Assembly (NCBI GenBank): GCA_963666515.2
Contig: OY762897.2
Coordinates: 2,400,001-2,464,000 of the forward strand
Reading direction: 5' to 3'
DNA length: 64,000 nucleotides
Source of the DNA: Candidatus Binatia bacterium
GTDB taxonomy: Bacteria > Desulfobacterota > Binatia > UBA9968 > JAJDTQ01
Below, in pieces: positions 2,172-63,046 of the stretch (positions within the stretch are counted from its first letter, which is position 1; each line of letters starts with the position of its first letter). Position numbers and translations under genes: made by a program. The notes under the pieces are model-generated. The model made no database searches and was not told the DNA's origin. It saw only the letters and a program-made list of their open reading frames with translations.

Positions 2172-3006
2172 CGCCGGCCAGCCCTTCTTGCGGCCGGCGG
2201 CGGTGCTGTGTCTCGCCGCGCTGGCCCTGCTCGCTCCCGCGTCCGCCGGGGCGGTGACGGTCAAGGACCCCGGCCGCTACGTGGTGGACACCGCCGGCCT
2301 CATCGACGCCGCCACGGAACGCAGGATGGAGGGCTGGCTGCGCGAGCTGGAGCAGAAGACCACGGCCCAGGTCAAGGTGCTCACCGTGCCCACCACCGGA
2401 GGCGAGGACTTCTTCGGCTTCGTGCAGCGCCACGCCGAGGCCTGGAAGCTCGGCCGCAAGGGCAAAGATAACGGCGCCCTCATCGCCCTCGCCGTCAAGG
2501 AGCGGCGGGTGCGGGTCCACACCGGCTACGGCCTCGAAGGGGTGCTGCCCGACTCCTGGGCCGGCACGGCCTCCCGCCGGGTCGCTACGGACTTCTTCAG
2601 GGCGGGGAAGTACGCCCAGGGATTGATGGCCCTCACCGTCGCCACCGCCAACCGGGTGGCAGACGCCGCGCGCGTGAAGCTTACCGGCGCACCGGACTAC
2701 CGTATCCGCGGCGGACGCCGCGGCGTGACCAACACCGGCATCGGCGCCTCGCTGATGCCGCTGCTGATCTTGCTGTTCGTCTTCAGCTCCCTGCGGAGGC
2801 GCCGTCACCACGCCGCCTGGGGCGGCCGGGGCGCGGCCTCGGGCTTCCTGATGGGCGCCGTCCTCGGAAGCCTCCTGGGGGCGGGCGGGCGCTCCTGGGG
2901 GGGCGGCTTCGGCGGCGGTCTGGGAGGAGGCTTCGGAGGCGGGTTCGGCGGTTCCTTCGGGGGAGGCGGCGGCTTCGGCGGCGGAGGAGGAGGAGCCGGG
3001 TGGTGA
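2161..3006 (+). CDS. TPM domain (YgcG-like) membrane protein
   Basis: Signal peptide, YVVDTAGLI, WKLGRKGKDNGALI, TGYGLEGVLPD, a TM helix and a Gly-rich tail GGGFGGGGGGAGW. Confidence 0.9.
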   Translation: MRGSAGQPFLRPAAVLCLAALALLAPASAGAVTVKDPGRYVVDTAGLIDAATERRMEGWLRELEQKTTAQVKVLTVPTTGGEDFFGFVQRHAEAWKLGRKGKDNGALIALAVKERRVRVHTGYGLEGVLPDSWAGTASRRVATDFFRAGKYAQGLMALTVATANRVADAARVKLTGAPDYRIRGGRRGVTNTGIGASLMPLLILLFVFSSLRRRRHHAAWGGRGAASGFLMGAVLGSLLGAGGRSWGGGFGGGLGGGFGGGFGGSFGGGGGFGGGGGGAGW

Positions 3007-3100
3007 GGCCGGCCCTTCCGGGGCTTGCTGCCGGGGCCGGCGGGCGCGGGGATGTGAAACCCGTCCCTGCTTGACTGTCCCTGCGATCCGTGGATAGCTC

Positions 3101-3694
3101 ATGGAGGCAAGGAGAAACGGTGTGAGCGCATCGAGGATTCTATTGATAATGCTGGCGGCCATCGTCGGCATGGTGCTGCTGGCGGGCGGTTGTGTCCTCA
3201 ACGGCTACAACCGGGCCATCACCCTGGACGAGGGGGTCAAGAACCAGTGGGCGCAGGTGGAGAACCAGCTCCAGCGCCGCTTCGAGCTGATTCCCAACCT
3301 GCTTGAGACGGTCAAGGGGGTAGCCAAGCAGGAGGAGAAGATCTTCCTGGGAGTGGCCAATGCCCGCAAAGCCTACTTCCAGGCGAACACGGTCAACCAG
3401 AAGGCGCAGGCCGCCGTCGGCTTCGAGCGGGCATTGTCCCGGCTGCTGGTCTTGCGGGAGCGATACCCGCAACTCAAGTCCAACCAGTCCTTCCTGAAGC
3501 TCCAGGACCAGCTCGAAGGCACCGAGAACCGCCTTGCGGTGGAGCGCAAGCGCTTCAACGACGCCGTCACCGCGGTCAACACCTTCGTGCGCAGGCTGCC
3601 GGGCCGTTTCTACGCGGGCCTCGCCGGTGTGGAGAAGGCAGAGTACTTCCAGGTGGAAGAGGCGGCGCGGGAAACACCGAGAGTCAGCTTCTAG
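3101..3694 (+). CDS. lemA: LemA family protein
   Basis: YN..ITLDE.V..QWAQVENQLQRRFELIPNL, ERYPQLKSNQSFLKLQDQLEGTENRLAVER.RFN. The true start may be GTG at 3122 (AGGAGA SD). Confidence 0.93.
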   Translation: MEARRNGVSASRILLIMLAAIVGMVLLAGGCVLNGYNRAITLDEGVKNQWAQVENQLQRRFELIPNLLETVKGVAKQEEKIFLGVANARKAYFQANTVNQKAQAAVGFERALSRLLVLRERYPQLKSNQSFLKLQDQLEGTENRLAVERKRFNDAVTAVNTFVRRLPGRFYAGLAGVEKAEYFQVEEAARETPRVSF

Positions 3695-5137: not shown

Positions 5138-6919
5138 ATGATGTCCCCCTTGGCTGCACTGCCGGAAACCATCACCGCACCGCGCACGGACGCCGTCTAC
5201 AACTGTCACGCCTATCTCACGAAGGTGCCCATCGCCGCCATACGGCCCTTTGTCGAAGCACTCTCTGCTCCCGGAGATACGGTCGTGGACTTCTTCGCAG
5301 GCTCGGGGATGACCGGCTTGGCCGCCCTGATGACCGGCCGCAAAGCGGTCCTCAGTGACATATCCGTACTCGGACAGCACGTTGCCAAGGGCTATCTGGC
5401 CGATGTCTCGCCGTCCGCGTTCCGCCACGCTGCTGCTGCGGTGGTCGAGACAGCGCGCGGCGCGCTGGGCGATCTGTACAGGACCCGTCGGGCCTCTGAC
5501 AGTGCCATTGTGGAAATGGCCCGCACCGTATGGTCCTTTGCCTATATCTGCCCTGCCTGCGCCGAAGAGATCATCTATTACGAACACATCACACCCCGCA
5601 GCGGTCCCCCGGAACAATGCCCCTCATGTGGCGGGCCGTTTGCACGCCGGAACTGGTCACGGGCGGGAGATGTGCCGGTTGACGTCGTGGTGACCGGAGA
5701 AGAAGGCAAACTCACTTCACAGGAAGTTTCCGATATTGACCGGAAAATGATCGCAATCGCCGCGGCCGATCCCCGTCGCAATGATGTGCCGTCCCTCCCC
5801 ATCGACGAAACTCGGGAGATGTACAGCCGGTCGGGGCTTGGGAAAGCAGGTCTGACGGAAACAGTCCGGTTCTTCGCGCCAAGGAACGCTATAGCGCTTC
5901 TTGAGTTGTGGAGCGCCATTCAGGCATATGAAGACAATGACATCCAACGCAAACTGAGTTTCGCCTTTACGGCGATTCTTCCACGAGCTTCCCGGCGCTA
6001 TCAGTGGAGCGCCAAGCGCCCGCTCAACGCACAGAACCAGACCTATTACATCGCTCCAGTCTACTACGAGTGGAATGTCTTCGACCTTTTCTGTCGGAAG
6101 GTAGAGGCGGTCCTGCGGGCCGATCGGGAGTTGTTCGGCGGAAGGAGTGAACCACTGTTCCGTCAAGTGAAGGGGCAGGATGTCTTGTATCAACTCGCGT
6201 CAGCGCACCGCCTGCCACACTTGCCGGACACGTCGGTGGACTACATCTTCACCGACCCGCCTTTCGGCAGCAACATCTTTTACAGCGATATGAGCCTGTT
6301 CCACGAAGCCTGGCTGGGTCGAACTACGGACAACGAAAGCGAGGCCGTTATCCACACTACGGGCGAACGGAAGAACGGCGCGGCCGAGCGCTATGAGGAC
6401 ATTTTGCGCGGCGCGTTCACGGAGGCATTTCGGGTCCTGAAGCCGAGTCGGTACATGTCTGTGGTGTTCGGCAACAGTAACGGCAGTATTTGGGGCCTTG
6501 TACAGCGTGCCCTGCGAGCCGCCGGATTCACGGGCACGCCCGTCCATGTCGCCATCCTCGACAAGGGCCAACGATCGGTCAAAGGTCTGAATTCCGGAAC
6601 CGAGACCGTGGCCACGGTGGACCTCGTCCTTACGGTTCAAAAGCCGGCAGTTGCGCAGCCGTCCGTTCAGGCTCACACGCTATCAAGCGGCGATGCGGCG
6701 GCATTGATCCGGGAATCGCTCGCCAACCTGACCGTCGAGCAAACCCGCAACGCCAGCTATATCTACGTCGGAATCCTGCGGCGGGCCATCCAGAAACACC
6801 GGATTCTGGACGATCTGCATCTCGGTGATGTGCTTGTTGAGCTACGGCGCGCCGGCTACACAATCGACCGCAAGACCGGAATGTTGCACCGCGACCCTGC
6901 CACGGTAACCGCGGCGTGA
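5138..6919 (+). CDS. Amino (N6A/N4C) DNA methyltransferase with inserted Zn-ribbon
   Basis: Motif I VDFFAGSGMTG, CPAC...CPSC, motif IV YIFTDPPF, FRVLKP. Confidence 0.9.
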   Translation: MMSPLAALPETITAPRTDAVYNCHAYLTKVPIAAIRPFVEALSAPGDTVVDFFAGSGMTGLAALMTGRKAVLSDISVLGQHVAKGYLADVSPSAFRHAAAAVVETARGALGDLYRTRRASDSAIVEMARTVWSFAYICPACAEEIIYYEHITPRSGPPEQCPSCGGPFARRNWSRAGDVPVDVVVTGEEGKLTSQEVSDIDRKMIAIAAADPRRNDVPSLPIDETREMYSRSGLGKAGLTETVRFFAPRNAIALLELWSAIQAYEDNDIQRKLSFAFTAILPRASRRYQWSAKRPLNAQNQTYYIAPVYYEWNVFDLFCRKVEAVLRADRELFGGRSEPLFRQVKGQDVLYQLASAHRLPHLPDTSVDYIFTDPPFGSNIFYSDMSLFHEAWLGRTTDNESEAVIHTTGERKNGAAERYEDILRGAFTEAFRVLKPSRYMSVVFGNSNGSIWGLVQRALRAAGFTGTPVHVAILDKGQRSVKGLNSGTETVATVDLVLTVQKPAVAQPSVQAHTLSSGDAAALIRESLANLTVEQTRNASYIYVGILRRAIQKHRILDDLHLGDVLVELRRAGYTIDRKTGMLHRDPATVTAA

Positions 6920-6938
6920 CCTTGTACCAAAATCACGG

Positions 6939-7748
6939 CTATCGACGCTCGCTCAGGAGCCTTACTGCATTCTCCCGCGTCAGCAACTCCACGTCCGCTT
7001 CCCGCTCCAGAAACGGGCGCACGTCCGCGGCCACCCGATCCCACGCCAGCGCGTCGAGGCGACCGCGGATCGTCGCCCGCCAGTTTTCGGGATGCAGCGC
7101 CTCGCCCGCCCAGCCGGTCTGACGCAACGCCGCGTTGAGCAGCGTGAGATTGGGCGCGGGCCACGCCGGGTCGCTCAAGTACCAGATCAGGTCGTACAGA
7201 TCCCGGCCCTTGGTATAGGGACGCTGCAAGAGCGCGTGCAGCTTGCCGGCGAGCAGCGAAGCGCGGTCGTGGTGGCGAAGCCGCAGCGTCACGTGGCGGC
7301 GCACCAGGCAGATCGCCAGGATCGCCCCTGCTGGAGGCCGGGTATCGACCTCGATCCTGATGGCGAGGCTTTCGTCCGGATGCGGTGAGAGTCCTGCCTC
7401 ATGCAACAGCCCCCGGAAGCGCACGAACGCGCTGTGATCCGGGTTCCGGTCACGCACCGCGAGGCCGACGGCGTAACCCTCGCGGGAGAGTTCCGCGCGG
7501 ACGGCCTTCAACCAGGCCCGCAGGTCATAGGCCTCGGGGTCGCCTTCAAGGGTGAAGTCGAGGTCTTCCGAGTAGCGCGGGAGGGCGAAGATAAAGCGCA
7601 GGCATGTGCCGCCCTGGAACGCCAGCGACATCATTGCCCCCTCTCGTTGCAGGACGCCCAGGATGCGCGCCTGAAGGTATTCGCGCGCAATGTTGCGGCC
7701 CTGCAACGGGCCGGCCGCCTGCATGAGATCCAGCAGATGGGCTTTCAC
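6939..7748 (-). CDS. abiEii: AbiEii/AbiGii nucleotidyltransferase toxin (type IV TA)
   Basis: AFQGGTCLR....PRYSEDLDF, AGKLHALL, KGRDLYDL. Confidence 0.9.
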   Translation of the reverse strand: MKAHLLDLMQAAGPLQGRNIAREYLQARILGVLQREGAMMSLAFQGGTCLRFIFALPRYSEDLDFTLEGDPEAYDLRAWLKAVRAELSREGYAVGLAVRDRNPDHSAFVRFRGLLHEAGLSPHPDESLAIRIEVDTRPPAGAILAICLVRRHVTLRLRHHDRASLLAGKLHALLQRPYTKGRDLYDLIWYLSDPAWPAPNLTLLNAALRQTGWAGEALHPENWRATIRGRLDALAWDRVAADVRPFLEREADVELLTRENAVRLLSERR

Positions 7749-11178: not shown

Positions 11179-12878
11179 GTCAACTCCTCCCGGAAGTAGC
11201 GGAACGCACAGCGCACCGAGTTGGGGGCCGCTTGGCCGAGGCCGCAGATGGAGGCGTCCGTCATGGCCTCGCCCAGCGACTCCAGCAGCGGCTCGTCCCA
11301 GGAGGGCCGCTCCAGCAGCGTCACCGCCTTCTCCGTCCCCACCCGGCACGGCGTGCACTGCCCGCAGCTCTCGTGCTTGAAGAAGCGCATCAGGTTGCGC
11401 ACCACGGCCTTCACGTCGTCCTTGTCGCTCAACACCACCACCCCGTGGGAGCCGACGAAACAGCCGTGCTGCTCCAGGGATCCGAACTGGAGCGGCAGGT
11501 CGGCCATGGAAGCCGGCAGAATCCCGCCCGAGGCGCCGCCGGGAAGGTAGCCCTTGAGGCGGTGACCGGGCGCCATGCCGCCGCAATGCTCGTCGATCAG
11601 CTCACGGACCGTGATGCCGGTGGGCGCGATCTTGACCCCCGGACGGGCTACCCGTCCCGATACCGAGTAGGCGTGAAGGCCGGCGCCGCCGTTGCGGCCC
11701 TGGGCGGTGAACCATTCCGGCCCCTTCTCCAGAATGTCCCGGACCCAGTAGAGCGTCTCGACGTTCTGCACCAGGGTGGGACGGCCGAACAGGCCGGTCT
11801 CCGCCACGTAGGGCGGCCGGTGCCGCGGCAGCCCGCGCTTGCCCTCGATGCTTTCGATCATGGCCGACTCTTCGCCGCAGATGTAGGCTCCGGCGCCGCG
11901 GCGCAGGTGCACATCCACGTGGGCGTCCAGACCGGCTTCCCGAAGCCTGGGCAACTCCCGCGACAGGATCTCCCGCGCCTCGGCGTACTCGTCCCGCAGG
12001 TAGATGTAGGCGGCCTCCGCTTCCACCGCCCAAGCCGCCACCAACACCCCTTCCAGGAACCGGTGCGGATCGCTCTCCATGAAGTAGCGGTCCTTGAAGG
12101 TGCCGGGCTCGCCCTCGTCCGCGTTGACGGTCATGAGCCGCGGGCCGGGATAGCCGCGCACGATCTGCCACTTGCGGCCGGTGGGGAAGCCCGCGCCGCC
12201 GAGGCCCCGAAGGCCTGAAGCCGTCACCTGTTCCACGATCTCCTCGCAGCTTCGGCCCCCCGCCAGACACTCCCTCAGGAGGGCGTAGCCGCCCTCCGCG
12301 GCGTACGCACCGTAGTCCCGGTAGGCCGGAATCGCGGCCTCGACCTCCCGGCGCCGGACCGGCCCCGCCACCGACTCCAGGGTGGCCCGCTCCACGTAGA
12401 GACGCCCCACCCTGGCCACCGGAGCGCGGTCGCAACCGCCCATGCACGGACCCGGCAACACCCGAACCCCATGCCCCAAAGCATCCGTCAGGCTGTCCAG
12501 CAGAGCCCGCGAACCCATCATCTCGCACACCAGTCCGTCACACACACGCACGGTCAGATCCGCGGGCGGAACCGTGCCGTCCCGGATCACGTCGAAGTGG
12601 GCGTAGAACGTCGCCACCTCGTAGACTTCCGCCAGGGCCAAGCGCATCTCGTCCGCCAGCGCCGCCAAGTGCGCTACGGACAGCACTTGGTAACGGTCCT
12701 GAATGAGGTGCAGGTGCTCGATCAGGAGATCCCGGCGCCGCGGGCGGTCGCCGAGCAACGCCCGCACCTGCTCCAGCGCCTCCAGGTCTACCTGCCTGCC
12801 CCGTGGACGGTTCCGGCCGAGGCCGCGCCCGGAACCGGGATGCTGCCGCCGCCGTGGCGGCTCGTGCGTTTCGGCCAT
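11175..12878 (-). CDS. Formate dehydrogenase beta subunit (NuoE-NuoF fusion; FMN/NADH binding)
   Basis: EVATFYAHF, CDGLVC...CMGGC, SGLRGLGGAGFPTGRKW, NADEGEPGTFKDR, GAGAYICGEE, HESCGQCTPCRVG, SICGLG. Confidence 0.92.
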   Translation of the reverse strand: MAETHEPPRRRQHPGSGRGLGRNRPRGRQVDLEALEQVRALLGDRPRRRDLLIEHLHLIQDRYQVLSVAHLAALADEMRLALAEVYEVATFYAHFDVIRDGTVPPADLTVRVCDGLVCEMMGSRALLDSLTDALGHGVRVLPGPCMGGCDRAPVARVGRLYVERATLESVAGPVRRREVEAAIPAYRDYGAYAAEGGYALLRECLAGGRSCEEIVEQVTASGLRGLGGAGFPTGRKWQIVRGYPGPRLMTVNADEGEPGTFKDRYFMESDPHRFLEGVLVAAWAVEAEAAYIYLRDEYAEAREILSRELPRLREAGLDAHVDVHLRRGAGAYICGEESAMIESIEGKRGLPRHRPPYVAETGLFGRPTLVQNVETLYWVRDILEKGPEWFTAQGRNGGAGLHAYSVSGRVARPGVKIAPTGITVRELIDEHCGGMAPGHRLKGYLPGGASGGILPASMADLPLQFGSLEQHGCFVGSHGVVVLSDKDDVKAVVRNLMRFFKHESCGQCTPCRVGTEKAVTLLERPSWDEPLLESLGEAMTDASICGLGQAAPNSVRCAFRYFREELT

Positions 12879-12929
12879 CTTCTCAGGCTTCCCGGTTCGA
12901 CATCCGTGAACGGCGCGATGTGCGCTTGC

Positions 12930-13109
12930 TCACCGACTCTCCTTCTCGAGGCGCTCGATCAGCGCCGCCAACTCGTCGAGACGCTGCCGTGCATCCGCCG
13001 CCGACCGGGCCACCCTATCCGCCGCGGCCCCGTCATGCACCGCGTCCTCCAGGGTCGTCACGGCGATACCGAATACCTTCAGCAGACGGCGCACTTCATC
13101 GCTTGGCAT
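12930..13109 (-). CDS. Small hypothetical helical protein (59 aa)
   Basis: MPSDEVRRLLKVFGIAVT...; co-oriented between the aor and FDH genes. Confidence 0.55.
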   Translation of the reverse strand: MPSDEVRRLLKVFGIAVTTLEDAVHDGAAADRVARSAADARQRLDELAALIERLEKESR

Positions 13110-13151
13110 CAAGAGCCCTTTCATCCGGCTGTGTTTGTCCCTCCCCACCCC

Positions 13152-13179
13152 CTGGATTCCTGCTTTCGCGGGAATGACG
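13152..13179. repeat. REP-like palindrome, family A
   Basis: CTGGATTCCTGCTTTCGCGGGAATGACG; related copies at 20.8, 48.4, 50.3 and 51.4 kb. Confidence 0.75.
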
Positions 13180-13192
13180 GTTGGGGCGTGGG

Positions 13193-15001
13193 TCATGTAA
13201 CACACGCGCTCAGTCCCAACGCCTCCAGCTTGGCCCGAGACACACGGCCATCCTCGTCCCACTCGCGGGCGCTGTAGTAATCCCGGATCATCTCTCGCAG
13301 CTCGTCGCGGGTGAGCCGCGTCCCCTGGGCCACGCCCGTGGCCAGGGATTCGGTGAGCACCCGAAGCGGCAGGCCGTCGTCCTCGGGGCGCCAGCCCTCG
13401 CGCTGGTTGAAGCAGCGCTTGAGCGTATGTATCCGCTCCGCGGCGCGCCGCAGCTCGTCCGCGGTGCAGTCCCAGCCCGTGACCTTGGCCAACAGGTCCG
13501 CGGCTTCGCCGTAGAAGTCGTGGAAGCAGCGCCGCAGGAACTTGCACACGATGAGGGAATCCTGCGCCGCGGCGAAGTCTTCGGAGGCGGCCACCAGCGC
13601 GCCCCGGCCCGGCCCGGACGCGAGCCGGTCCACCTCGCCGGAGAAATCGGCTTCGTAGGCTCCGGAACGGTTATGGCAGGCGCCCCGTGGACTCACCGCC
13701 AGACCCAGGGCCATGGTCTTGAGGCTCCGGGGCTCGTATCCGGGAAGCTCCAGCCCCTTGACCTGCATGGCCCAGTCCAGGGAGTCGTGGCCCACCGCCA
13801 GCGCCGCGCGCCGGGAGCCCTCGGCCAGCAGGTCGCCGACCCCCCGGCGCTCCGCGATGGCGGGGATGGCGGCCAGCACGGCCTGCGCGGAGCCGAAGCG
13901 CAGATCGCCGGCCTCCGGCAGCAACCCCCGCTCCACGCACTCCATGGCCCAGGCCAGGGTGCCGCCGGCGCTGATGCTGTCGATCCCGTATTCGTCGCAG
14001 AGCCGGGCGGCCTCCAGCACCGCGTCGGGATCCTCGATGCCGCACAGGGGCCCAAGGGCGAACAGCGTCTCGTACTCCATGCGCTGCTCGGCGCCGGATG
14101 CCGACTTGAACAGCCGCTCGCAACGGATGGTGCAGGAAGCGCACCCGTGGCGGCGGCTGAAGCTCGTCTCGGTGAGGCTCTCGCCGCTGAGGGCGTCGGC
14201 CGCGTCGAAGGTGGGCTGCTGAAAGTTGCGCGTGGGCAGGGCGCCGAGCCGGTCGAACACCGCCAGGTTCGCCACCGTGCCGACCTCCCGGTACTTGGCG
14301 GTGTGCTCCCCCAGGCTCCGTTGCCGCAGTGCCGCGGCCGCGGCCGCCACTCCCTCCGGGTCCGCCACCGACACCCGGGCGTTGCCGGACAACGCGACGG
14401 CCTTGAGGTTCTTGGAGCCCATGACCGCGCCGACGCCGCCGCGGCCCGCGTGCCGGCCCTCGTTGCTGATGGTTGCGAAGCGCACCCGGTTCTCTCCGGC
14501 CACGCCGATGGAGGCCACCCTCACGGCATCGTTCCGTAGCTCCGCGCGGATGGCGGTCTCCGTGTCCGCGGCGCTCCGCCCCCAGAGATGGCGCGCGTCC
14601 CGCAGTTCCACCCTGTCGTTGCCGATGAACAGCCAGCACGGGTTCGGAGCCCGTCCCGTCACCACCACCGCGTCCACGCCCACGGCCTTCAATTCCAGCG
14701 CGAAGAAGCTGGACGACAGCGAGTCGGCGATGAAACCGGTCAGAGGCGACTTCGTGACTACCGCGTACTTGGCGGTGGTGGTGAGCCCGGTCCCGGCCAG
14801 CGGCGCGCTGGCGAGGATCAGGGGGTTCTCCGGCGCCAGCGGCTCCACGGCCGGAGGGGCGAAGTCGTAGAGCAGGCTCGTGCCGAGGCCGATTCCGCCG
14901 AGAAAGGCCCGAAGCCGGCCCTCTCCGGTCTCGAGCCGGCAGTGGCGGCCCGTGCCCAGGTCCACGTGCAGCAGCCTGTCGTGAAACCCGTGCACGGTCA
15001 T
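13193..15001 (-). CDS. aor: Aldehyde:ferredoxin oxidoreductase (tungsten AOR family)
   Basis: ATG at 15001. FLGGIGLG, KSPLTG, AGRGGVGAVMGSKNLKAV, GCASCTIRC, EYET, CDEYGIDSIS, VKGLELPGYEPR, RGACH. Confidence 0.92.
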   Translation of the reverse strand: MTVHGFHDRLLHVDLGTGRHCRLETGEGRLRAFLGGIGLGTSLLYDFAPPAVEPLAPENPLILASAPLAGTGLTTTAKYAVVTKSPLTGFIADSLSSSFFALELKAVGVDAVVVTGRAPNPCWLFIGNDRVELRDARHLWGRSAADTETAIRAELRNDAVRVASIGVAGENRVRFATISNEGRHAGRGGVGAVMGSKNLKAVALSGNARVSVADPEGVAAAAAALRQRSLGEHTAKYREVGTVANLAVFDRLGALPTRNFQQPTFDAADALSGESLTETSFSRRHGCASCTIRCERLFKSASGAEQRMEYETLFALGPLCGIEDPDAVLEAARLCDEYGIDSISAGGTLAWAMECVERGLLPEAGDLRFGSAQAVLAAIPAIAERRGVGDLLAEGSRRAALAVGHDSLDWAMQVKGLELPGYEPRSLKTMALGLAVSPRGACHNRSGAYEADFSGEVDRLASGPGRGALVAASEDFAAAQDSLIVCKFLRRCFHDFYGEAADLLAKVTGWDCTADELRRAAERIHTLKRCFNQREGWRPEDDGLPLRVLTESLATGVAQGTRLTRDELREMIRDYYSAREWDEDGRVSRAKLEALGLSACVT

Positions 15002-56161: not shown

Positions 56162-56446
56162 TCAAGTCGCGAAACGGAGTTTGACCCCACACGCGGCCGA
56201 CACTTTGGCGAGTGTGTCGAGCCGTGGATTTCTCCGGCCGGACAGCGCGCGGGACAGTGCCACGCGATCCAGCTTGGCCTCACGCGCGAGTGCGGACACG
56301 CCGCCCTGCGCCTCGGCTACGTTGCGAAACGCCTTCATGAGCAGGCGCGGGTCGTCACCCATCTCCTCGATCGCTGCATTCAAATAAGCAACGATATCCT
56401 CGGGTGTCTTGAGATAATCGCTCGCCCTATGTTCTCTTACGGGCAT
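56162..56446 (-). CDS. Addiction module antidote protein (HI1420-like HTH)
   Basis: DYLKTPEDIVAYLNAAIEE, VAEAQGG...LA....L.RALS...NPRLDTL. Confidence 0.9.
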   Translation of the reverse strand: MPVREHRASDYLKTPEDIVAYLNAAIEEMGDDPRLLMKAFRNVAEAQGGVSALAREAKLDRVALSRALSGRRNPRLDTLAKVSAACGVKLRFAT

Positions 56447-56762
56447 TTCGTTTCTCCTGTCGGTACGCTTTCCAACGGGCCTGCGCCGTGGCTATATCGC
56501 GGGCCTGCCGGTTCTTCGTTCCGCCACCCAGCAGAATCACGACCTCATCACCGTCACGACCGTAGTACAATCTGTATCCAGGACCAAAATCGACCCGAAG
56601 CTCGGAAACGCCCTTCCCCACGCTCCTGTGATCCCCGAAGTTGCCGAACTCGATTCGATCGATGCGCGTCTGCACACGAGCACGCGTTGCGGACGATTGC
56701 TGCCGGAGCCAAGTGTCGAAGTAGTCAACGCCGTCGTCGGAAACGTAGTGCAGTACGACCAC
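56427..56762 (-). CDS. RelE/ParE-family addiction module killer protein (HI1419-like)
   Basis: F..WL, RIDRIE.GNFGD.RSVG.GVSELRVDFGPGYRLYY, ILLGGGTK..Q.RDI..A. Confidence 0.92.
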   Translation of the reverse strand: MVVLHYVSDDGVDYFDTWLRQQSSATRARVQTRIDRIEFGNFGDHRSVGKGVSELRVDFGPGYRLYYGRDGDEVVILLGGGTKNRQARDIATAQARWKAYRQEKRNARKRT

Positions 56763-56787: not shown

Positions 56788-57521
56788 AGTCCGTCAAGGA
56801 GTTCCTGTGCCGTGCGGAAGACGTCGTGGAACATGGGCACGGTGAGCTTGCCTGTGAAGGTGTTCTGCTGGCTGGGGTGGTAGGAGCCCAGGAGGGTCAA
56901 GCCGTTGTCGAAGTCATGGCGGCTTCCGTGGCCGAACTGCGGGCGCGGACGAGGAAGCGATTGACCTGCTTCGGCCGCCGCCTTGAGGTAGGAGTCGAAG
57001 GCGATCTTCCCCAACGCGATGACCACCCGGAGACGGCGGAGCAGCGCGAGGTCCCGGACCAGGTAGCCGCGGCATTTGTCGAACTCGTCCCGGGCGGGCT
57101 TGTTTTCGGGGGGCGCGCAGCGAACCGCGGCGGAGATGTAGCAGTCGGTGAGCTTCAGACCGTCGTTCCGGTCCACGGACTCGGCCTGATTGGCGAACCC
57201 GTGCTCGAACAGCGCTCGGTAGAGCCAGTCGCCGCTGCGGTCTCCGGTGAACATCCGACCGGTGCGGTTGCCGCCGTGGGCCGCGGGCGCCAAGCCTACG
57301 ATGAGGAGTTGCGCGGCACTATCGCCGAAGCCGGGAAGCGGCCGGCCCCAATACTTGTAGCCGTGGTATCGCCGCGGTGGATTGGCCGCGGTCTCGGCCC
57401 GCCAGTCCACCAGCCTCGGGCACTTTCGGCACCGGATCACCGCCCGGTTGACACGTGCGAAAGAGTCCATTTCATAGGCATCGAGGCAGCAAGGTGAGGC
57501 CGAAGGGCTACGTTCTGCCAT
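56784..57521 (-). CDS. Uracil-DNA glycosylase family 5 (UdgB-like, 4Fe-4S)
   Basis: CRKCPRL, YWGRPLPGFGD, GLAPAAHGGNRTGRMFTGDRSG, RCAPP.NKP, YHPSQQNT; start 57521 or 57470. Confidence 0.93.
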   Translation of the reverse strand: MAERSPSASPCCLDAYEMDSFARVNRAVIRCRKCPRLVDWRAETAANPPRRYHGYKYWGRPLPGFGDSAAQLLIVGLAPAAHGGNRTGRMFTGDRSGDWLYRALFEHGFANQAESVDRNDGLKLTDCYISAAVRCAPPENKPARDEFDKCRGYLVRDLALLRRLRVVIALGKIAFDSYLKAAAEAGQSLPRPRPQFGHGSRHDFDNGLTLLGSYHPSQQNTFTGKLTVPMFHDVFRTAQELLDGL

Positions 57522-59644
57522 CAACGCAGCCCCGAGGCTGACGCCGATGTCCCTCCCAATCCGAACAGGCCGAGAAGTTCTTCACGGGTCATCCGTACCG
57601 ACAAATCCAGCGACACATCGTCAACAAGCTCGTCAAACAGTGCCTGCTTGCGCTGAAGGATCTCGTCGATGCGTTCCTCGATGGTCCCCGTGCAGGAATA
57701 CTTGATGGCGTTCACCTTGACCGTCTGGCCGAAGCGATGGCTCCGGTCTTCGGCCTGTGTCTCTACGGCGGGGTTCCACCACCGGTCCAGGTGGAAGACG
57801 TAGGATGCCTCTTGCAGATTCAAGCCCAATCCGCCGACGCGCAGAGACAATATCAGCACCTTGTGCTCGTCGCGGACCTTGAATCGCTCGATGATCTCGG
57901 TCCTTTGCCGTTGAGGCATGCCACCCGTAATGGTGAGCGGCGCGAAGTCCTTCAGGTAGCTGGCCGCCGCACCTACGCCGGATGTGTCATTGACGTACTG
58001 GGAGAAGAGCAGCGCCTTGTGTCCCTGGGCCGCCAGTTGTTCCAGCCGGTCCTTGATGTCGTCCAGCTTGCTGGACTCGCCACTCTTGGGGTCAGCGTTG
58101 CATATCTGCTTCAGGCGAGTGATGAGCTCAAGGACATGCCGCACATCGACCTCAGCGCCCAGAGACTTCAGGTAGACGATTCCCTCGCGCTCGGCCTTGT
58201 CGTAGCTGTCTCGCTGCCCTGGATTCAGGTCGATGGTGACCGTGGTTATCTGCTTCGGGGGAAGGTCATCAAGGACGTCGCCCTTCTTGCGCCTGAGCTG
58301 CAACTCGCGGTGCCGCATCCGCAACTCTGCGCCAGGCCGGTACCGTTTGGGCGGATTCGACCCTTCATGGTCCACGAACTCCAGGATCGATGCCAATTCC
58401 TCCTCATGATTCTCGATGGGGGTGCCCGTCAACGCCCAGGAACGCATTCTTTGCAACCCTTTCAGCGCGTCGCTGGTGTCGTTGCGGTTCTTGATGCGTT
58501 GCGCCTCGTCGGCTACCACCACGTCCCAGATCCGGCGCCGCACCGGGGATTGCGCGTTGCCGTTGAAATCAGAACGCAGGGTGTCGTAGCTCACCAAGGT
58601 CACGTCCCTCTCGGCCGCCCACTGCCAGGAGCGGTCGGATGTCGGGCCACGAATGATGATGGCAGATAGTTCTGGCGCCCACTTCTCGAATTCACGCCGC
58701 CACTGGTCCAACAGAGCAGCCGGAGCCGCCACCAAGCATGACCGGGCCTCCCGGCGCGCCCGGAGGATACGCAAGGCGGCGATGGCCTGCAAGGTCTTGC
58801 CCAGACCCATGTCGTCCGCCAGCAGCAGTTGGCGATTGTCCAGCAAAGCCCGGACGCCCTCTTGCTGGAAGGGCATCAACGGTCCGGCCCATTCCAGTTG
58901 GATATCCTGGCCCGGTTTCCGGGGCGCGGCGAGCACCGCCCACAACCGCTGCGCCAGCGTCAACGCAGGTCCGAAGACCGGACGGGGCTCCTGGACAGTG
59001 TCCTCGTTTTCTGGAACACGGTTCGCCGAATACTCAGGGTGTTTGGGGAGTGAAGAAAGGCGAACGACGGTGGCCAGCCCGGGAAGCGCCGTCATGGCTT
59101 GAATCCGGTCATCGCCAAAGGCTTCGTCCAGAGCCTTGGCGACCCGTTCAAAGGGCTCGACGGGGTTGACCCCGTCCATTATTTCGCCGAGAAGCCGGCT
59201 GGCGGGAGACTCTTCGGCGCTGCACTCAGTTCCCCAAAGCCATTGGAATTTCCCGCGGCCTGTTCGGTACTCGGCTCCACTTCCCGTCCCGTCACCCGTA
59301 ACGCTGATACGGCAAAGGGGCTTCCCCAGCCGAATTTCGCCGGCAAACGCATCCTGTGGCACTTCGTCGGCCCGAGCGACAACCAATGTGGGTGACGATG
59401 TGGCGGCTCCAAACAGCGATTTGGCAAGGGATGACAGAACCTTTGGCTTGACGGTTCCTGGTTGTCCAAGGAGCTCATACGTCTCCGTACGAGTGAAGCA
59501 GAAGTCCAGCGGCTCACCGGCGGCGGTGGTCTGAAACAGCGCGGCACGCATGCCCTTGGCACTCTCCTCTTCGACGAACCGCAGCCAAGCGACGGCGCCC
59601 GAGCGGGTGTTCTCGTCACTGAGGTCGTCGAAAGGAATCGGCAA
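57521..59644 (-). CDS. SNF2-family (DEAQ) helicase with uncharacterised N-terminal domain
   Basis: LLADDMGLGKT, ADEAQRIKN, LTGTPIEN, LFSQY, GGLGLNLQEA, DRWWNPAVETQAEDRSHRFGQ. Confidence 0.92.
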   Translation of the reverse strand: MPIPFDDLSDENTRSGAVAWLRFVEEESAKGMRAALFQTTAAGEPLDFCFTRTETYELLGQPGTVKPKVLSSLAKSLFGAATSSPTLVVARADEVPQDAFAGEIRLGKPLCRISVTGDGTGSGAEYRTGRGKFQWLWGTECSAEESPASRLLGEIMDGVNPVEPFERVAKALDEAFGDDRIQAMTALPGLATVVRLSSLPKHPEYSANRVPENEDTVQEPRPVFGPALTLAQRLWAVLAAPRKPGQDIQLEWAGPLMPFQQEGVRALLDNRQLLLADDMGLGKTLQAIAALRILRARREARSCLVAAPAALLDQWRREFEKWAPELSAIIIRGPTSDRSWQWAAERDVTLVSYDTLRSDFNGNAQSPVRRRIWDVVVADEAQRIKNRNDTSDALKGLQRMRSWALTGTPIENHEEELASILEFVDHEGSNPPKRYRPGAELRMRHRELQLRRKKGDVLDDLPPKQITTVTIDLNPGQRDSYDKAEREGIVYLKSLGAEVDVRHVLELITRLKQICNADPKSGESSKLDDIKDRLEQLAAQGHKALLFSQYVNDTSGVGAAASYLKDFAPLTITGGMPQRQRTEIIERFKVRDEHKVLILSLRVGGLGLNLQEASYVFHLDRWWNPAVETQAEDRSHRFGQTVKVNAIKYSCTGTIEERIDEILQRKQALFDELVDDVSLDLSVRMTREELLGLFGLGGTSASASGLR

Positions 59645-59679
59645 TGCAGCGTACCCTTGGTCACAGGGATGGCCGACTG

Positions 59680-60948
59680 CTACTCGGCATCGTCTTTGGC
59701 TTCCCGTTCAAGGTCGGCGTTCTCTTCGTAATCAGGCTGATACTCGTCTCCCACGATCTCCGGATTGGAACCAGGGTAGAACCTCAGCAAATCCCACTCG
59801 TTGATGGACGCGCGGACTTTGTAGCGCATCCGGTTCTGATACCCGGCACCCCCTGTCTCTCCTTGCAGCGCTGGCGCCTCCCAGCCGTATGCCGTGCTGT
59901 ATATCGTCCGCAGCTTCTCCACTGTCTCTCGAACGTCTTCATCGGTAGGTGACGACAATGGGATGCATTCGCGTTCCAGCAGGCGCATCCCTGTTGCGGC
60001 GCGCGCAGCGATTTCCTTGTACTTGCTGGCCTCCAACTTCGGCCCGACGTAGTCGCGGTCCTTCTTGGCGCCGTCGGGGCTGATGACGTGCGAAGCGAAG
60101 TCATCCGTCACGGTGCCGACGGCAACCAGCCCCGGATAGGGTTCGCCGATGGCTCTCCCCAACCAGCGGGTCAACTCGGCATAAGACCGGCCTCGTTGCA
60201 GGAGCGAATAGGAGCCGATCAGTTCGATCTCGTCCAGCAGCAACACCCAGCCCTTGTAACCGGCGCCCTTGATGAGCTCGGTGGCGAATCGCAGGCGCTG
60301 CGGAGGCAGTTCGACTGCTTTGGGGGCGCGGAAGGAGTAGTTCTGCAGTTGTCCGATTTGCCTCAGCCCGTCCTTTACCCTGGCCAGCCTTATCCGCTCT
60401 CCAGCCCAGAACGCCTCGATCTCGCCGTTGAGTTCAAGGTCGTTCGACCTCTCATGGACGATCAGGCTCGCCGGAAACATCTGACTGAGAAGCCCTTCGT
60501 GTGCGGTCTTGTTGGCCCACTGGAAAAATGCAGCGTAGGCAGTGGAACTCGGCTTGAGGGCCTGCCCCAACTCTTCGATCAGCCTCCCTCGACGTCCGGG
60601 CATCCGACCGTTCTCCACCGCCGACTTGAATACCTTGCCCAGGTCGTAGAGGGGCGTCTCCTTGCTGATGGCCACCTTGCTGCAAACGAAACCGCTGGAA
60701 AGGGCCTGATGTTGCAAATGGGTAAGCAAATGAGACTTGCCTGCCCCGAAATCACCGGAGACCAGCATCCCCAAAGCGCCTTCCGGAGGGCTCTCCACGT
60801 CCGTGATCCGGTTCAAGAGCTTCGTGAAATCGCCTTCCGCCCGTGGCTGGTTGCAGCCCAGGCGCTCCACCGCATCCCGGTTCGGAACGCCGTTACGGAG
60901 GGCTTCCAGCGCGCGCCGGCAGGACAGAACCAGATCTTCGGCAACCAC
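59680..60948 (-). CDS. DUF2791 / BrxD-like P-loop ATPase, intact
   Basis: RRALEALRNGVP, Walker A GDFGAGKS, Walker B WVLLLDEIE. Confidence 0.85.
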   Translation of the reverse strand: MVAEDLVLSCRRALEALRNGVPNRDAVERLGCNQPRAEGDFTKLLNRITDVESPPEGALGMLVSGDFGAGKSHLLTHLQHQALSSGFVCSKVAISKETPLYDLGKVFKSAVENGRMPGRRGRLIEELGQALKPSSTAYAAFFQWANKTAHEGLLSQMFPASLIVHERSNDLELNGEIEAFWAGERIRLARVKDGLRQIGQLQNYSFRAPKAVELPPQRLRFATELIKGAGYKGWVLLLDEIELIGSYSLLQRGRSYAELTRWLGRAIGEPYPGLVAVGTVTDDFASHVISPDGAKKDRDYVGPKLEASKYKEIAARAATGMRLLERECIPLSSPTDEDVRETVEKLRTIYSTAYGWEAPALQGETGGAGYQNRMRYKVRASINEWDLLRFYPGSNPEIVGDEYQPDYEENADLEREAKDDAE

Positions 60949-60965
60949 GACGAGTGGCCTCCCTT

Positions 60966-61922
60966 TCAGGTCAATCGCACGAGAGACGCGACCGGATTGA
61001 CTAGGTTCCGGTCTCGAACGTCGTCCATGACCCTGGTGCGCAGAGCTTGGTAGATGCCGTAACCTCTTGAAGAGGTACTCTCATCGAGGAACTCCGTGTT
61101 GGTTGCCACCACGAGAAGCGTGCCTGACAAGCGGTCGATGTCGTCGATAAACTCGCGCAACAACTCGTAGTGATCCATGGTCATGGCCCGGGTGTAGTAC
61201 CTTTGGCCGTCCCTGGGGTTTCGCGCCAAAGTCACGCGGGAGTTGTCGAGCAGGATCACGGTTCCGAGGTGCCCGACGAAGCGAAACCAGTAGAGAGCGG
61301 ACTCGATGAAATACCGGGCAGTGGTTCGGTTGATGCCGGTGTAGATTGCAAAGGCGCGCACACTGCTCACCCGTGTGTTGGTCCCGGTCAGCCACTCCAG
61401 AACGGGCTGGCCGTCATACTCACCGCCGCTACGGGTGTTCTCCATGAGGCAGAGTTGAGTCATGGCCACTCGGAAATCCTTGGCCATCCTCGGGTTCTTG
61501 AAGACTTGGTTCTGTATCTTTGGCCTGATCGCATTGAGGACGAACTGTGGTTCGAGATGGTTGGCGGCCGCGATAGCAGCGAACAGGTTGTCGGAAGTGT
61601 CGGGGTTGACCCTGGCAACCTCATATTCGCTTTCGGCCAGCCGCAGGATCAGGCGGCGGGCCAAGCGCCGCCAATCAACCTGGACGGCGAGTCCGAAGAA
61701 GATGTCCTGCGGCATGTGGGCCCGCATGGTCGCGGCATCCAGCCTCGCGAGAACGTAGTCCAGCTTCTGACAGCGGTCTTTCAACTCCTGATAGAACTGC
61801 GATTTCCGTTCGTCGGAGGTGACCGCGAACTTTACGGAGGCCCCGCCGTTCCTGATGAAATCAGACAGATACTCGTCGTCGAGTTTCTGGAGCCAGTCTT
61901 GCAGACCGATGGTGTTCGACAT
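60966..61922 (-). CDS. DUF2791 / BrxD-like ATPase paralog with degenerate Walker motifs
   Basis: GGASVKFAV (no GKS/T), TVILLDNS, YELLREFIDDID, YQALRTR. Confidence 0.7.
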   Translation of the reverse strand: MSNTIGLQDWLQKLDDEYLSDFIRNGGASVKFAVTSDERKSQFYQELKDRCQKLDYVLARLDAATMRAHMPQDIFFGLAVQVDWRRLARRLILRLAESEYEVARVNPDTSDNLFAAIAAANHLEPQFVLNAIRPKIQNQVFKNPRMAKDFRVAMTQLCLMENTRSGGEYDGQPVLEWLTGTNTRVSSVRAFAIYTGINRTTARYFIESALYWFRFVGHLGTVILLDNSRVTLARNPRDGQRYYTRAMTMDHYELLREFIDDIDRLSGTLLVVATNTEFLDESTSSRGYGIYQALRTRVMDDVRDRNLVNPVASLVRLT

Positions 61923-62725
61923 CAGCCGCCCTCGGTAAACCTGAGTCCGTAATACTCCACGTCGCGGCCATCCGGTCCGACGAAGGAGAACAGGCCCTTC
62001 GCACGCCGGGTCCCCGTGGATGACGGGAATGAGACGCTGGCACCCTTTTTCGTGCGCTTGGGGCCTTTCGTGTCCAGGATATAGAGGTCCCTCGCGAAGT
62101 CGGTACGGTCATACTCCCGGCTACTGCCCGGCAGGGAGGTGAATAACCTGTATACCCTCTCCAGGGGGACAACCCGCCCAGCGCGCTGCGCCAGGAGGTC
62201 ACGGTCCGAAACTTCGTCTCTCACGATGTCCGAATAGACGTTGTAAAGGGAATCGAGGAAAGCACCCGACTGGTAACGGCCGGGCTTTTCCTGGTTCTTC
62301 AGCAAGGCATCGGCCAAGTGGGACGGTCGGATCGACGAGACCTTCTTCTTGTCGATTCTGACCGCACGTTCAGCGGGAAGGACCCGTACAATGGAGGGAT
62401 GAGACACCAGCCGGTCGTCACGCTCGTGGATGTCCAGTCCTTTCTCGGAAGCGATGCGCCGCAACTCCGCCCGGTATCCGTCTTTAAGGTACTGCTCCTC
62501 TTCGTCTTCCTCAAACGGCCATGATTGGACCGCGTTGGTCACGGCCTGTCCCAACGAACCCAGCGCCGTATCGAGCCTATCCTGAAGCCTCTTTATGGCA
62601 GCGATGTTCCCCTCTCTGGATGCCTTCTCCAACTGTCTGGCCAGCTTGATCAACTCGCCGGCCGAAGCCAGGGTCGCGGCGGCGGCATTTTGGGTCTCAT
62701 CGAATGCGCGTTCAAAACTAGACAT
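61922..62725 (-). CDS. Hypothetical protein with coiled-coil N-terminus, first gene of the DUF2791 operon
   Basis: 267-aa open frame; its stop overlaps the next ATG (TGATG). Confidence 0.75.
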   Translation of the reverse strand: MSSFERAFDETQNAAAATLASAGELIKLARQLEKASREGNIAAIKRLQDRLDTALGSLGQAVTNAVQSWPFEEDEEEQYLKDGYRAELRRIASEKGLDIHERDDRLVSHPSIVRVLPAERAVRIDKKKVSSIRPSHLADALLKNQEKPGRYQSGAFLDSLYNVYSDIVRDEVSDRDLLAQRAGRVVPLERVYRLFTSLPGSSREYDRTDFARDLYILDTKGPKRTKKGASVSFPSSTGTRRAKGLFSFVGPDGRDVEYYGLRFTEGG

Positions 62726-63046
62726 TCCATGCTCCGGGATATGATACAGTCGAGCCCGGTGGCGACGGGCCGTGTCGATGCGCAGTTAACAACGCAGGAA
62801 GAACCCGGTCAAGCCCTGACCAGGGCAACACGGATTCACAGATGATCTCGCGCAGGCGCGCAAGGGCGAAGACCGGATCCACGTCGAACGCTACCGGCGG
62901 CAGCCAACGGCTCAGGAAATTCCACAGGACTATCGCGTCGGACAGGACAGCCGAAATCGACCTTGACGCTCCTGAACACGTTTTGCTATACCCCTCGAAA
63001 ACGCAGGAAATCTGCGTGCCTCTCGCCAAAGAAAAGGGGATCCCCA

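Follow-up and report, generated by a model that had tools for sequence, protein, structure and literature searches.

In type 2 and type 6 bacteriophage exclusion (BREX) systems, a stand-alone AAA+ ATPase, BrxD, which belongs to Pfam family PF10923 (BrxC_BrxD, DUF2791) and to the ORC/Cdc6 (origin recognition complex) clade, lies beside the superfamily 2 (SF2) helicase BrxHI, and BrxD has been proposed to act as a helicase loader (PMC12839542). Shango combines an accessory protein (SngA, with TerB_N and TerB_C domains), a PF10923 ATPase (SngB) and an SF2 helicase (SngC). Elsewhere in BREX, the active ATPase BrxC is paired with an inactive P-loop protein, BrxB, which has been described as a sensor (PMC12839542), and a BrxC-BrxB complex is among the solved structures (entry 9zn5). 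Other active/inactive Orc/Cdc6 pairs, in a different arrangement, are coupled to KAP nucleoside triphosphatases (NTPases) (PMC10853773). Here we analyzed a four-gene cassette in a 64,000-nucleotide (nt) stretch of the genome of Candidatus Binatia bacterium (contig OY762897.2, positions 2,400,001 to 2,464,000; this whole stretch is called the window), which an earlier note had put forward as a candidate undescribed defence operon. The genes are named A, B, C and D in order of transcription, and A-B-C is referred to as the triad; B and C encode PF10923 proteins and D encodes an SNF2 helicase. The evidence presented below is solid that the cassette is a conserved, horizontally moving unit built on a novel triad. 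Note that L labels (L011, L085, L114 and so on) denote loci of relatives compared with the window and that G labels denote genomes.

The cassette resembles BREX type 2 and type 6 in that a stand-alone PF10923 ATPase lies beside an SF2 helicase, but it has no PglZ, PglX, PglW or BrxC, its helicase is of the SNF2 type rather than the Lhr-like BrxHI type, and its ATPase is an active/inactive pair accompanied by protein A. With Shango it shares the set of a small or accessory protein, a PF10923 ATPase and an SF2 helicase. Unlike SngA, however, A has no TerB domain, C matched the PADLOC model of SngB at an E-value of 1.1e-05 (22.8 bits) compared with 4e-172 for a real SngB, and D is an SNF2 protein and not SngC-like (SngC was not among the best 25 of the 45 families listed for D). 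The gene order and its logic, in which a small protein is followed by an inactive P-loop NTPase and an active ORC/Cdc6-type ATPase, are those of BrxA-BrxB-BrxC in BREX. In contrast to that arrangement, C is one third as large as BrxC, whose extra domains it does not have, B evolves slowly and is a PF10923 paralogue rather than an iSTAND protein of the BrxB type, neither a methyltransferase nor PglZ is present, and no sequence similarity between A and BrxA was detected. SNF2 helicases are also used in BREX type 3 and in Hma/BR systems. Further, the core of D is nearest to the models of ZorD (Zorya) and DpdE, and two relatives of the cassette (L085 and L114) share the SNF2 + Mrr layout of ZorD, but the cassette has no ZorA, ZorB or ZorC, and D of the window is nuclease-free with a different N-terminal region.

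Model scores agreed with these differences. C scored 56.6 bits with the NCBIfam BrxD model (NF033438; cut-off 350), which B did not match, and reached an E-value of 5.5e-15 with BrxD of PADLOC. The best PADLOC matches of D were ZorD (3.1e-73) and DpdE, both in the helicase core only, and BrxHI was matched at 8.4e-24. With the NCBIfam models, D scored 135.3 bits for ZorD (cut-off 1500; helicase core only), 75.8 and 71.4 bits for DrmD (cut-offs 950 and 610) and 68 bits for the DpdE equivalog (cut-off 500). Thus the equivalog scores for BrxD, ZorD, DrmD and DpdE were 4-11 fold under the cut-offs. PglZ, PglX, PglW, PglY/BrxC, ZorA, ZorB and ZorC were all absent from the inserted segment, which holds only A-D between the two flanking genes, and no cassette protein matched TerB, as the earlier note had read from the sequence for PglZ, PglX and TerB. 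We rejected membership in BREX, Shango, Zorya, DISARM or Dpd because neither the equivalog scores nor the sets of components correspond to these systems. The claim that the architecture matches no named system was borne out, since the proteins reached no curated NCBIfam cut-off and fitted no model of PADLOC 2.0.0, a release of 2023 to which a newer catalogue could already have added the cassette. A literature search, which did not extend to the candidate-system tables in the supplements of large screens, returned no description of this gene set.

The four close-set minus-strand genes were confirmed as open reading frames (ORFs) at all four positions (Table 1), and the spacing of the junctions was read directly from the sequence. 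The stop codon of A and the start codon of B overlap by 1 nt (...GGCTGATGTCG, TGATG); 17 nt, containing the Shine-Dalgarno-like AAGGGAGG, separate B from the GTG start of C; and 35 nt separate C from the TTG start of D. A scan for promoters and terminators was uninformative, yielding 1 promoter-like site compared with 1.5 expected. The lower guanine-plus-cytosine (GC) content that the block had appeared to have was also found: between 57500 and 62999, all 500-nt windows but one (58500-58999, at 0.664) have values of 0.58-0.62, compared with 0.68-0.73 on both sides. The neighbours are a uracil-DNA glycosylase (UDG) of the PF03167 superfamily (1.3e-27) and an SdhA/FrdA-type flavoprotein (8e-51 against solved SdhA; sdhA below), so that the reported position between UDG and an sdhA-like gene stands. 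The stop codon of D appears to overlap the start of the UDG ORF, which is probably an artefact of an over-long ORF, because relatives align to UDG only from residue 8-20.

Comparison with relatives of the same genus showed that the window carries an insertion of ~5.3-5.45 kb made up of exactly genes A-D. In all five same-genus genomes without the cassette, UDG and sdhA are direct divergent neighbours, separated by 35-186 nt in four genomes and by ~900 nt in the fifth. Homology to these five empty sites ends at positions 57468-57488 of the window (57545 in one genome) and restarts at 62951-62955 (from 62787 in one genome). No direct or inverted repeats were found at the ends of the insert, and there was no integrase, transposase or recombinase gene among its ORFs. 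A toxin-antitoxin pair close to the insert (Table 1) was considered as part of the same island and rejected: the cassette-less relatives have it at the same locus, so it is native and lies outside the insert. Occurrence within the genus was patchy. Gene B was found in 13 of 28 genomes of the genus and in none of the 33 others of the order, and a distant homologue of A was found in 2 of 300 other genomes sampled evenly from the phylum. Elsewhere in the genus, the cassette occupies other sites, and in L011-L014 UDG is absent within 8 kb of it.

One of the cassette-less relatives, L112 (genome G002), is the one with the ~900-nt spacer between UDG and sdhA (~2270-3160). Pieces of this spacer are 86-93% identical to positions 62787-62917 of the window, just upstream of gene A; the spacer may have been left behind by a lost cassette, or it may be older intergenic sequence.

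Table 1. Positions of the cassette genes, their parts and nearby features in the window
Feature	Position	Strand	Description
Gene A	61922-62725	minus	267 amino acids (aa); no family match
Gene B	60966-61922	minus	318 aa; PF10923, P-loop and catalytic Glu lacking
Gene C	59680-60948	minus	422 aa; PF10923, intact Walker A/B
Gene D	57521-59644	minus	707 aa; SNF2 helicase
D N-terminal domain	59105..59644	minus	~residues 1-180; private to this helicase family
D SNF2 helicase core	57521..58894	minus	~residues 251-707; PF00176 + PF00271
Inserted segment, approximate limits	57480..62950		homology breakpoints against cassette-less relatives
Toxin-antitoxin pair	56162-56762	minus	Gp49-like (PF05973) + HI1420-type helix-turn-helix antidote; GC 0.59-0.61

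To examine the wider distribution of the cassette, we collected relatives of B by a one-genome-per-species scan and kept the best 80 of 168 loci (B identity 59-80%; phylum labels taken from record titles). These loci represented seven phyla: Binatota, Chloroflexota (Dehalococcoidia and Caldilineaceae), Acidobacteriota, Latescibacterota, Nitrospirota, Tectimicrobiota and Pseudomonadota. The co-occurrence of the genes, the check that the earlier note had named, was strongly conserved. According to tblastn, A and B were present and adjacent in 80/80 loci, C was present in 79/80, with the sole miss at a contig end, and D came next in 66/80; of the 14 loci without D, two were at contig ends and 12 ran into unrelated genes. 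When all called genes of the 80 loci were clustered, no fifth gene was conserved across taxa, and no transposase, integrase or relaxase was conserved with the cassette. The order A-B-C, with overlapping stops and starts, was also kept in divergent loci wherever the contig permits, namely in L099-L108, which are metagenome contigs (GC 0.71-0.76 where computed), and in L114, a GC-0.49 genome from the phylum of the window. The proteins of the divergent triads were 30-41% identical to those of the window (34-41% in L114). A FastTree phylogeny of B (72 rows) clustered by phylum, yet it contained 11 changes of phylum label where the minimum would be 6, and for Binatota, Chloroflexota and Acidobacteriota at least 3-4 changes are required by branches with good support. 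This pattern is consistent with a cassette that passed repeatedly from phylum to phylum and was then inherited vertically. Over 28 complete cassettes, mean pairwise identity was 0.60 for A, 0.66 for B, 0.68 for C and 0.76 for the helicase core of D, whereas residues 1-250 of D, at 0.47, were the fastest-evolving part of the cassette.

The ATPase was indeed duplicated, as had been claimed: C (64.5 bits, 1.2e-17) and B (43.3 bits, 3e-11, profile positions 148-332 only, i.e., the C-terminal two thirds) each passed the Pfam gathering cut-off of PF10923 (22.2 bits), and the divergent copies scored 43.7-55.4 bits. The Walker A (GDFGAGKS) and Walker B (LLLDE) motifs noted in C were confirmed as intact, with G65, F67, G68, G70, K71, S72, D239 and E240 invariant in 35 homologues. 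The loss of both motifs from B was confirmed as well; there is no P-loop, and the Walker B position reads ILLDNS. In 44 homologues of B, G26, G27, K31 and the residues of the retained YxALxxR motif (Y291-A293-L294-R297) were invariant, and D226 and N227 were at least 90% conserved. At ~30-40% identity, homologues of B kept EYL..F...GG(A/G)(A/S)(V/I)K and the C-terminal RV.DEVRDR..NP, again with no P-loop, and homologues of C kept RRA.EALR.GVP.R, G.(F/G)G.GKSH, KETPL and GWV.L.DE.EL. Judged by its sequence, B is an inactive member of PF10923, because it has no P-loop and carries D-N (window) or D-N, D-A or D-L (distant copies) at the Walker B position.

The earlier note had further suggested that the active ATPase and the pseudo-ATPase form a heteromer, and co-folding with controls supported this idea. 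When B and C were co-folded, each with its own alignment, the ipSAE interface score was 0.85 (runs 0.83, 0.85 and 0.85), whereas all three controls gave 0.00; contacts agreed to at least 88%, and the predicted local distance difference test (pLDDT) value of the partner was at least 87. In the calibration of this method, the mark was reached by 58 of 80 solved complexes and by 2 of 110 mismatched pairs, counts that apply here only approximately because custom alignments were supplied. On C, the predicted interface includes residue 67 of Walker A, residue 240 of Walker B, the N-terminal helix 4-25 and the C-terminal residues 376-417; on B, it includes the conserved GGASV stretch (residues 25-30) and residues 296-313. 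Thus a B-C heterodimer, with an interface that would take in ATP-site residues of C, is supported in silico, and the predicted interface is as expected for an AAA+ contact closing over the nucleotide site of the active subunit. Since a solved BrxC-BrxB complex exists, part of the B-C score could reflect resemblance to known AAA+ pairs. Profiles of B and C had no significant match among the sequences of the PDB; the marginal matches of C, confined to the Walker A region, were TnsC, a DnaC/DnaI-like primosome protein and BrxC (E 0.05-0.17).

The assignment of D to the SNF2 helicases held, with matches to PF00176 (SNF2-rel_dom; 154.3 bits, 4.9e-45) and PF00271 (Helicase_C; 73.7 bits, 1.7e-20), and motifs I, II and VI are intact in the translation (DDMGLGKT, DEAQ and QAEDRSHRFGQ). 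The first ~250 residues matched no family in Pfam, NCBIfam or PADLOC scans. Wherever the N-terminal domain was found in a longer protein, that protein was an SNF2 helicase (58/58). Its structural neighbours in the ESM Atlas had template modelling (TM) scores of 0.33-0.40 (EndoV, RNase H-like RVT_3 and ASKHA kinases), a weak lead towards an RNase H-like fold. In another genome region outside the window, the same organism has a second SNF2-type ORF of 960 aa (G000:C1:3862288-3863646), whose best match was the SCO1167/SCO6262 helicase model (230.8 bits; cut-off 1200).

D varied among the relatives. The N-terminal domain is encoded by a separate ORF of 179-185 aa, followed by SNF2, in L027, L057, L061, L085 and L114, in which the ORFs were checked; L067 and L087, which show the same truncated match, probably have this split form too. 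The SNF2 protein of L085 is fused to a C-terminal Mrr nuclease (Mrr_cat 7.3e-24), and the 741-aa helicase of L114 aligns with it through the Mrr region (51% identity over 620 aa). B of L085 is 59% identical to that of the window, and the L085 and L114 cassettes are far apart, so the nuclease-bearing five-gene form may, on these unrooted comparisons, be old. The statement in the earlier note that no nuclease is present therefore stood for the cassette of the window and did not hold for the family, in which SNF2-Mrr occurs in two distant variants and an HNH gene lies upstream in ten Caldilineaceae loci. D itself was missing from 12 of the 78 loci with room for it, and these triad-only loci keep intact, conserved genes. 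A search for the N-terminal domain elsewhere in five helicase-less genomes found none, which is a weak negative. Given this and the absence of the helicase from the 12 loci, D cannot be essential for the triad to function. The conserved core is thus A-B-C; the gene of the SNF2 helicase commonly comes fourth but is dispensable.

Protein A, always encoded by the first gene of the triad, had no match in Pfam, NCBIfam or PADLOC, and 40 divergent homologues searched against Pfam (E up to 0.5) revealed no recurrent family. Its profile gave nothing significant among PDB sequences, and its neighbours in the ESM Atlas were members of its own family only. This family is large, with 985 relatives among 90% clusters and 807 representatives at 50% identity; nearly all of the representatives have ~260 aa, and where they are named at all, it is only as 'hypothetical'. 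The adaptor role that the earlier note had suggested is, for A, a putative one.

We next analyzed the neighbourhoods of the relatives, taking two ORFs on each side (150/158 upstream and 150/154 downstream ORFs). Pfam matches included ankyrin (7), components of toxin-antitoxin modules (PIN 3, Phd/YefM 3), DDE transposases, RE_AspBHI_N and AAA_21/AAA_15 ATPases. PADLOC matches (E up to 1e-10) were HNH (10), mREase_IV (7), PDC-M72A (7), mad3 (5 + 2), AriA (4), HamB (3), Old/GajA-type (3), AbiLi (3), HEC-01A (3), mREase_II (2) and one each of NsnA, SspH, DrmB and type IV RecD. These raw counts, for which there is no control sample, are suggestive of flanks richer in defence genes than a random neighbourhood. 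In ten Caldilineaceae-titled loci, an HNH_2 gene, which also matches the PADLOC models for HNH and type IV methyl-directed restriction, lies just upstream on the same strand; since all ten loci belong to a single family, synteny alone may account for it. In L107, a complete Shango lies back to back with the triad (SngA 2.5e-68; SngB 4e-172, 571 bits; SngC 1.2e-266, 885 bits), and in L106 SngA again lies upstream of an A, at 75% identity.

Other neighbours were seen in single loci or groups of loci. Ankyrin-repeat proteins, which account for seven flank ORFs in all, lie immediately upstream in the Latescibacterota-titled L035, L036, L040 and L042 (~5660-6950). In L019 (Dehalococcoidia), a GmrSD_N (DUF262-type) restriction-like gene is directly downstream (12767-14311; 29.4 bits, under the Pfam cut-off of 33.2). 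In L100, recA (5442-7580, minus strand) is split by an intein with a LAGLIDADG endonuclease and lies directly upstream of the triad, and Lhr is ~1.2 kb downstream.

We consider it somewhat probable (roughly 55%) that the cassette is a horizontally mobile, unnamed defence-type module directed against phages or plasmids. This reading draws on context: the insertion polymorphism and patchy occurrence, the sharing among phyla, the constant gene order, the predicted B-C contact with its parallel in BrxC-BrxB, the Mrr-bearing variants, Shango and other defence genes as neighbours, and the variability of the N-terminal domain of D. In such a module, the B/C pair, together with A in a fixed ratio through translational coupling, would sense or mark foreign DNA. 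The complex would then recruit or activate the SNF2 motor on this DNA through the variable N-terminal domain of D, in parallel with the loader role proposed for BrxD with BrxHI; that is, the triad may load or license the helicase. Lineages with SNF2-Mrr would then cut the DNA. The nuclease-free form of the window might act by translocation alone, stripping or stalling the replication or packaging machinery, or might depend on a nuclease supplied in trans.

Several results weigh against this defence reading. Neither a nuclease nor another toxic effector can be recognised in the cassette of the window, and the 12 loci without a helicase lack the proposed motor gene. With a mean column identity of 63%, B is strongly conserved, unlike the inactive P-loop sensors of BREX, which are described as fast-evolving. 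An hhalign comparison of B with C gave a probability of 8%, in the region of the Walker B strand only, so the paralogy of the two proteins stands on the PF10923 match of each. Searches of plasmid, phage and IMG/VR viral collections with A or B found no match. Most flank ORFs are housekeeping genes, and the defence matches among them are counts without a background sample. Further, the divergent high-GC triads of L099 and L100 lie between intein-bearing recA and a full-length Lhr helicase, and that of L103 lies beside RecB, RecC and an NYN protein.

The last of these observations also speak for the main rival explanation, an accessory DNA-repair or recombination module in which A/B/C would recognise a DNA structure (a stalled fork, gap or lesion) and bring an SF2 motor, either its own SNF2 or Lhr or RecBCD of the host, to remodel it, and which would have spread horizontally because it is dispensable. 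The strong, non-diversifying conservation of B and C, the lack of a nuclease or toxin domain in the window copy and its position against UDG fit the same idea. Adjacency to UDG, however, was seen in 0/80 of the relatives' loci, and the repair-gene neighbours amount to two contexts among ten metagenome contigs, whereas presence and absence within a genus, transfer between phyla, Mrr fusions, adjacency to Shango and restriction-type neighbours are more typical of defence. We regard a repair function as unlikely, though it is the explanation that competes best with defence.

It is rather more doubtful that the triad, rather than being an independent system, adds a regulator or sensor to separate helicase systems, namely SNF2(-Mrr) here and Shango elsewhere, with the triad-only loci being orphans or having an unlinked partner. 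The triad was seen with three different partner states, Shango already holds a PF10923 ATPase of its own, and the private N-terminal domain of D could be a docking piece. Against this, triad-only loci are frequent, with their genes intact and conserved as described above, and Shango adjacency was found on two related contigs only; as defence systems cluster anyway, adjacency alone is no sign of cooperation.

We give very little credence to the cassette as cargo or machinery of a mobile element, e.g., a TnsC/IstB-type AAA+ complex for target selection or regulation in the transfer or maintenance of that element, since the clean insertion into an intergenic site and the resemblance of C to TnsC, DnaC/DnaI-like protein and BrxC, its only solved-structure matches, are set against the non-significance of those matches, the absence of terminal repeats and of any conserved transposase, integrase or relaxase, and the lack of hits in plasmid, phage and viral collections. 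A transposon proper was rejected, as there are neither ends nor a transposase.

Returning to the defence reading, we tentatively suggest a broader version of it, which we hold to be possible but well short of probable. A-B-C would be a widespread, unnamed 'ORC-like' sensor/loader triad of a small protein with a dead and a live AAA+ ATPase, the 807 clusters of A indicating its extent, that couples to interchangeable SF2 motors. The ancestral form would likely have had five genes, with a docking protein and SNF2-Mrr, and the cassette of the window would be derived from it, in fused form and with no nuclease, and would interfere with foreign DNA solely through translocation.

The role of PF10923 ATPases of the BrxD/SngB type beside helicases is at issue in BREX type 2 and Shango, and the cassette presents a compact, strongly conserved version of this problem. 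Its practical assets are that an active and an inactive ATPase come together in it, with an interface that is predicted confidently, and that the helicase docking domain is separable; nature also provides variants with and without the nuclease and with and without the helicase. With this set of variants, the loader hypothesis is directly testable. The triad also bears on surveys of uncultured bacteria, in which it accounts for part of a PF10923 signal otherwise counted as Pgl/BREX. In marine-sponge metagenomes, PF10923 has been reported, in contrast to seawater, and counted as Pgl (PMC5099237); this triad could be the source of some of those matches. Further, the cassette is a clean example of a defence-like block that moves among seven phyla without a recognisable mobility gene. 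If the sensor/loader triad proves true, it would amount to a new family of defence systems, in which one loading principle connects BREX-2, Shango and effectors of the Zorya type.

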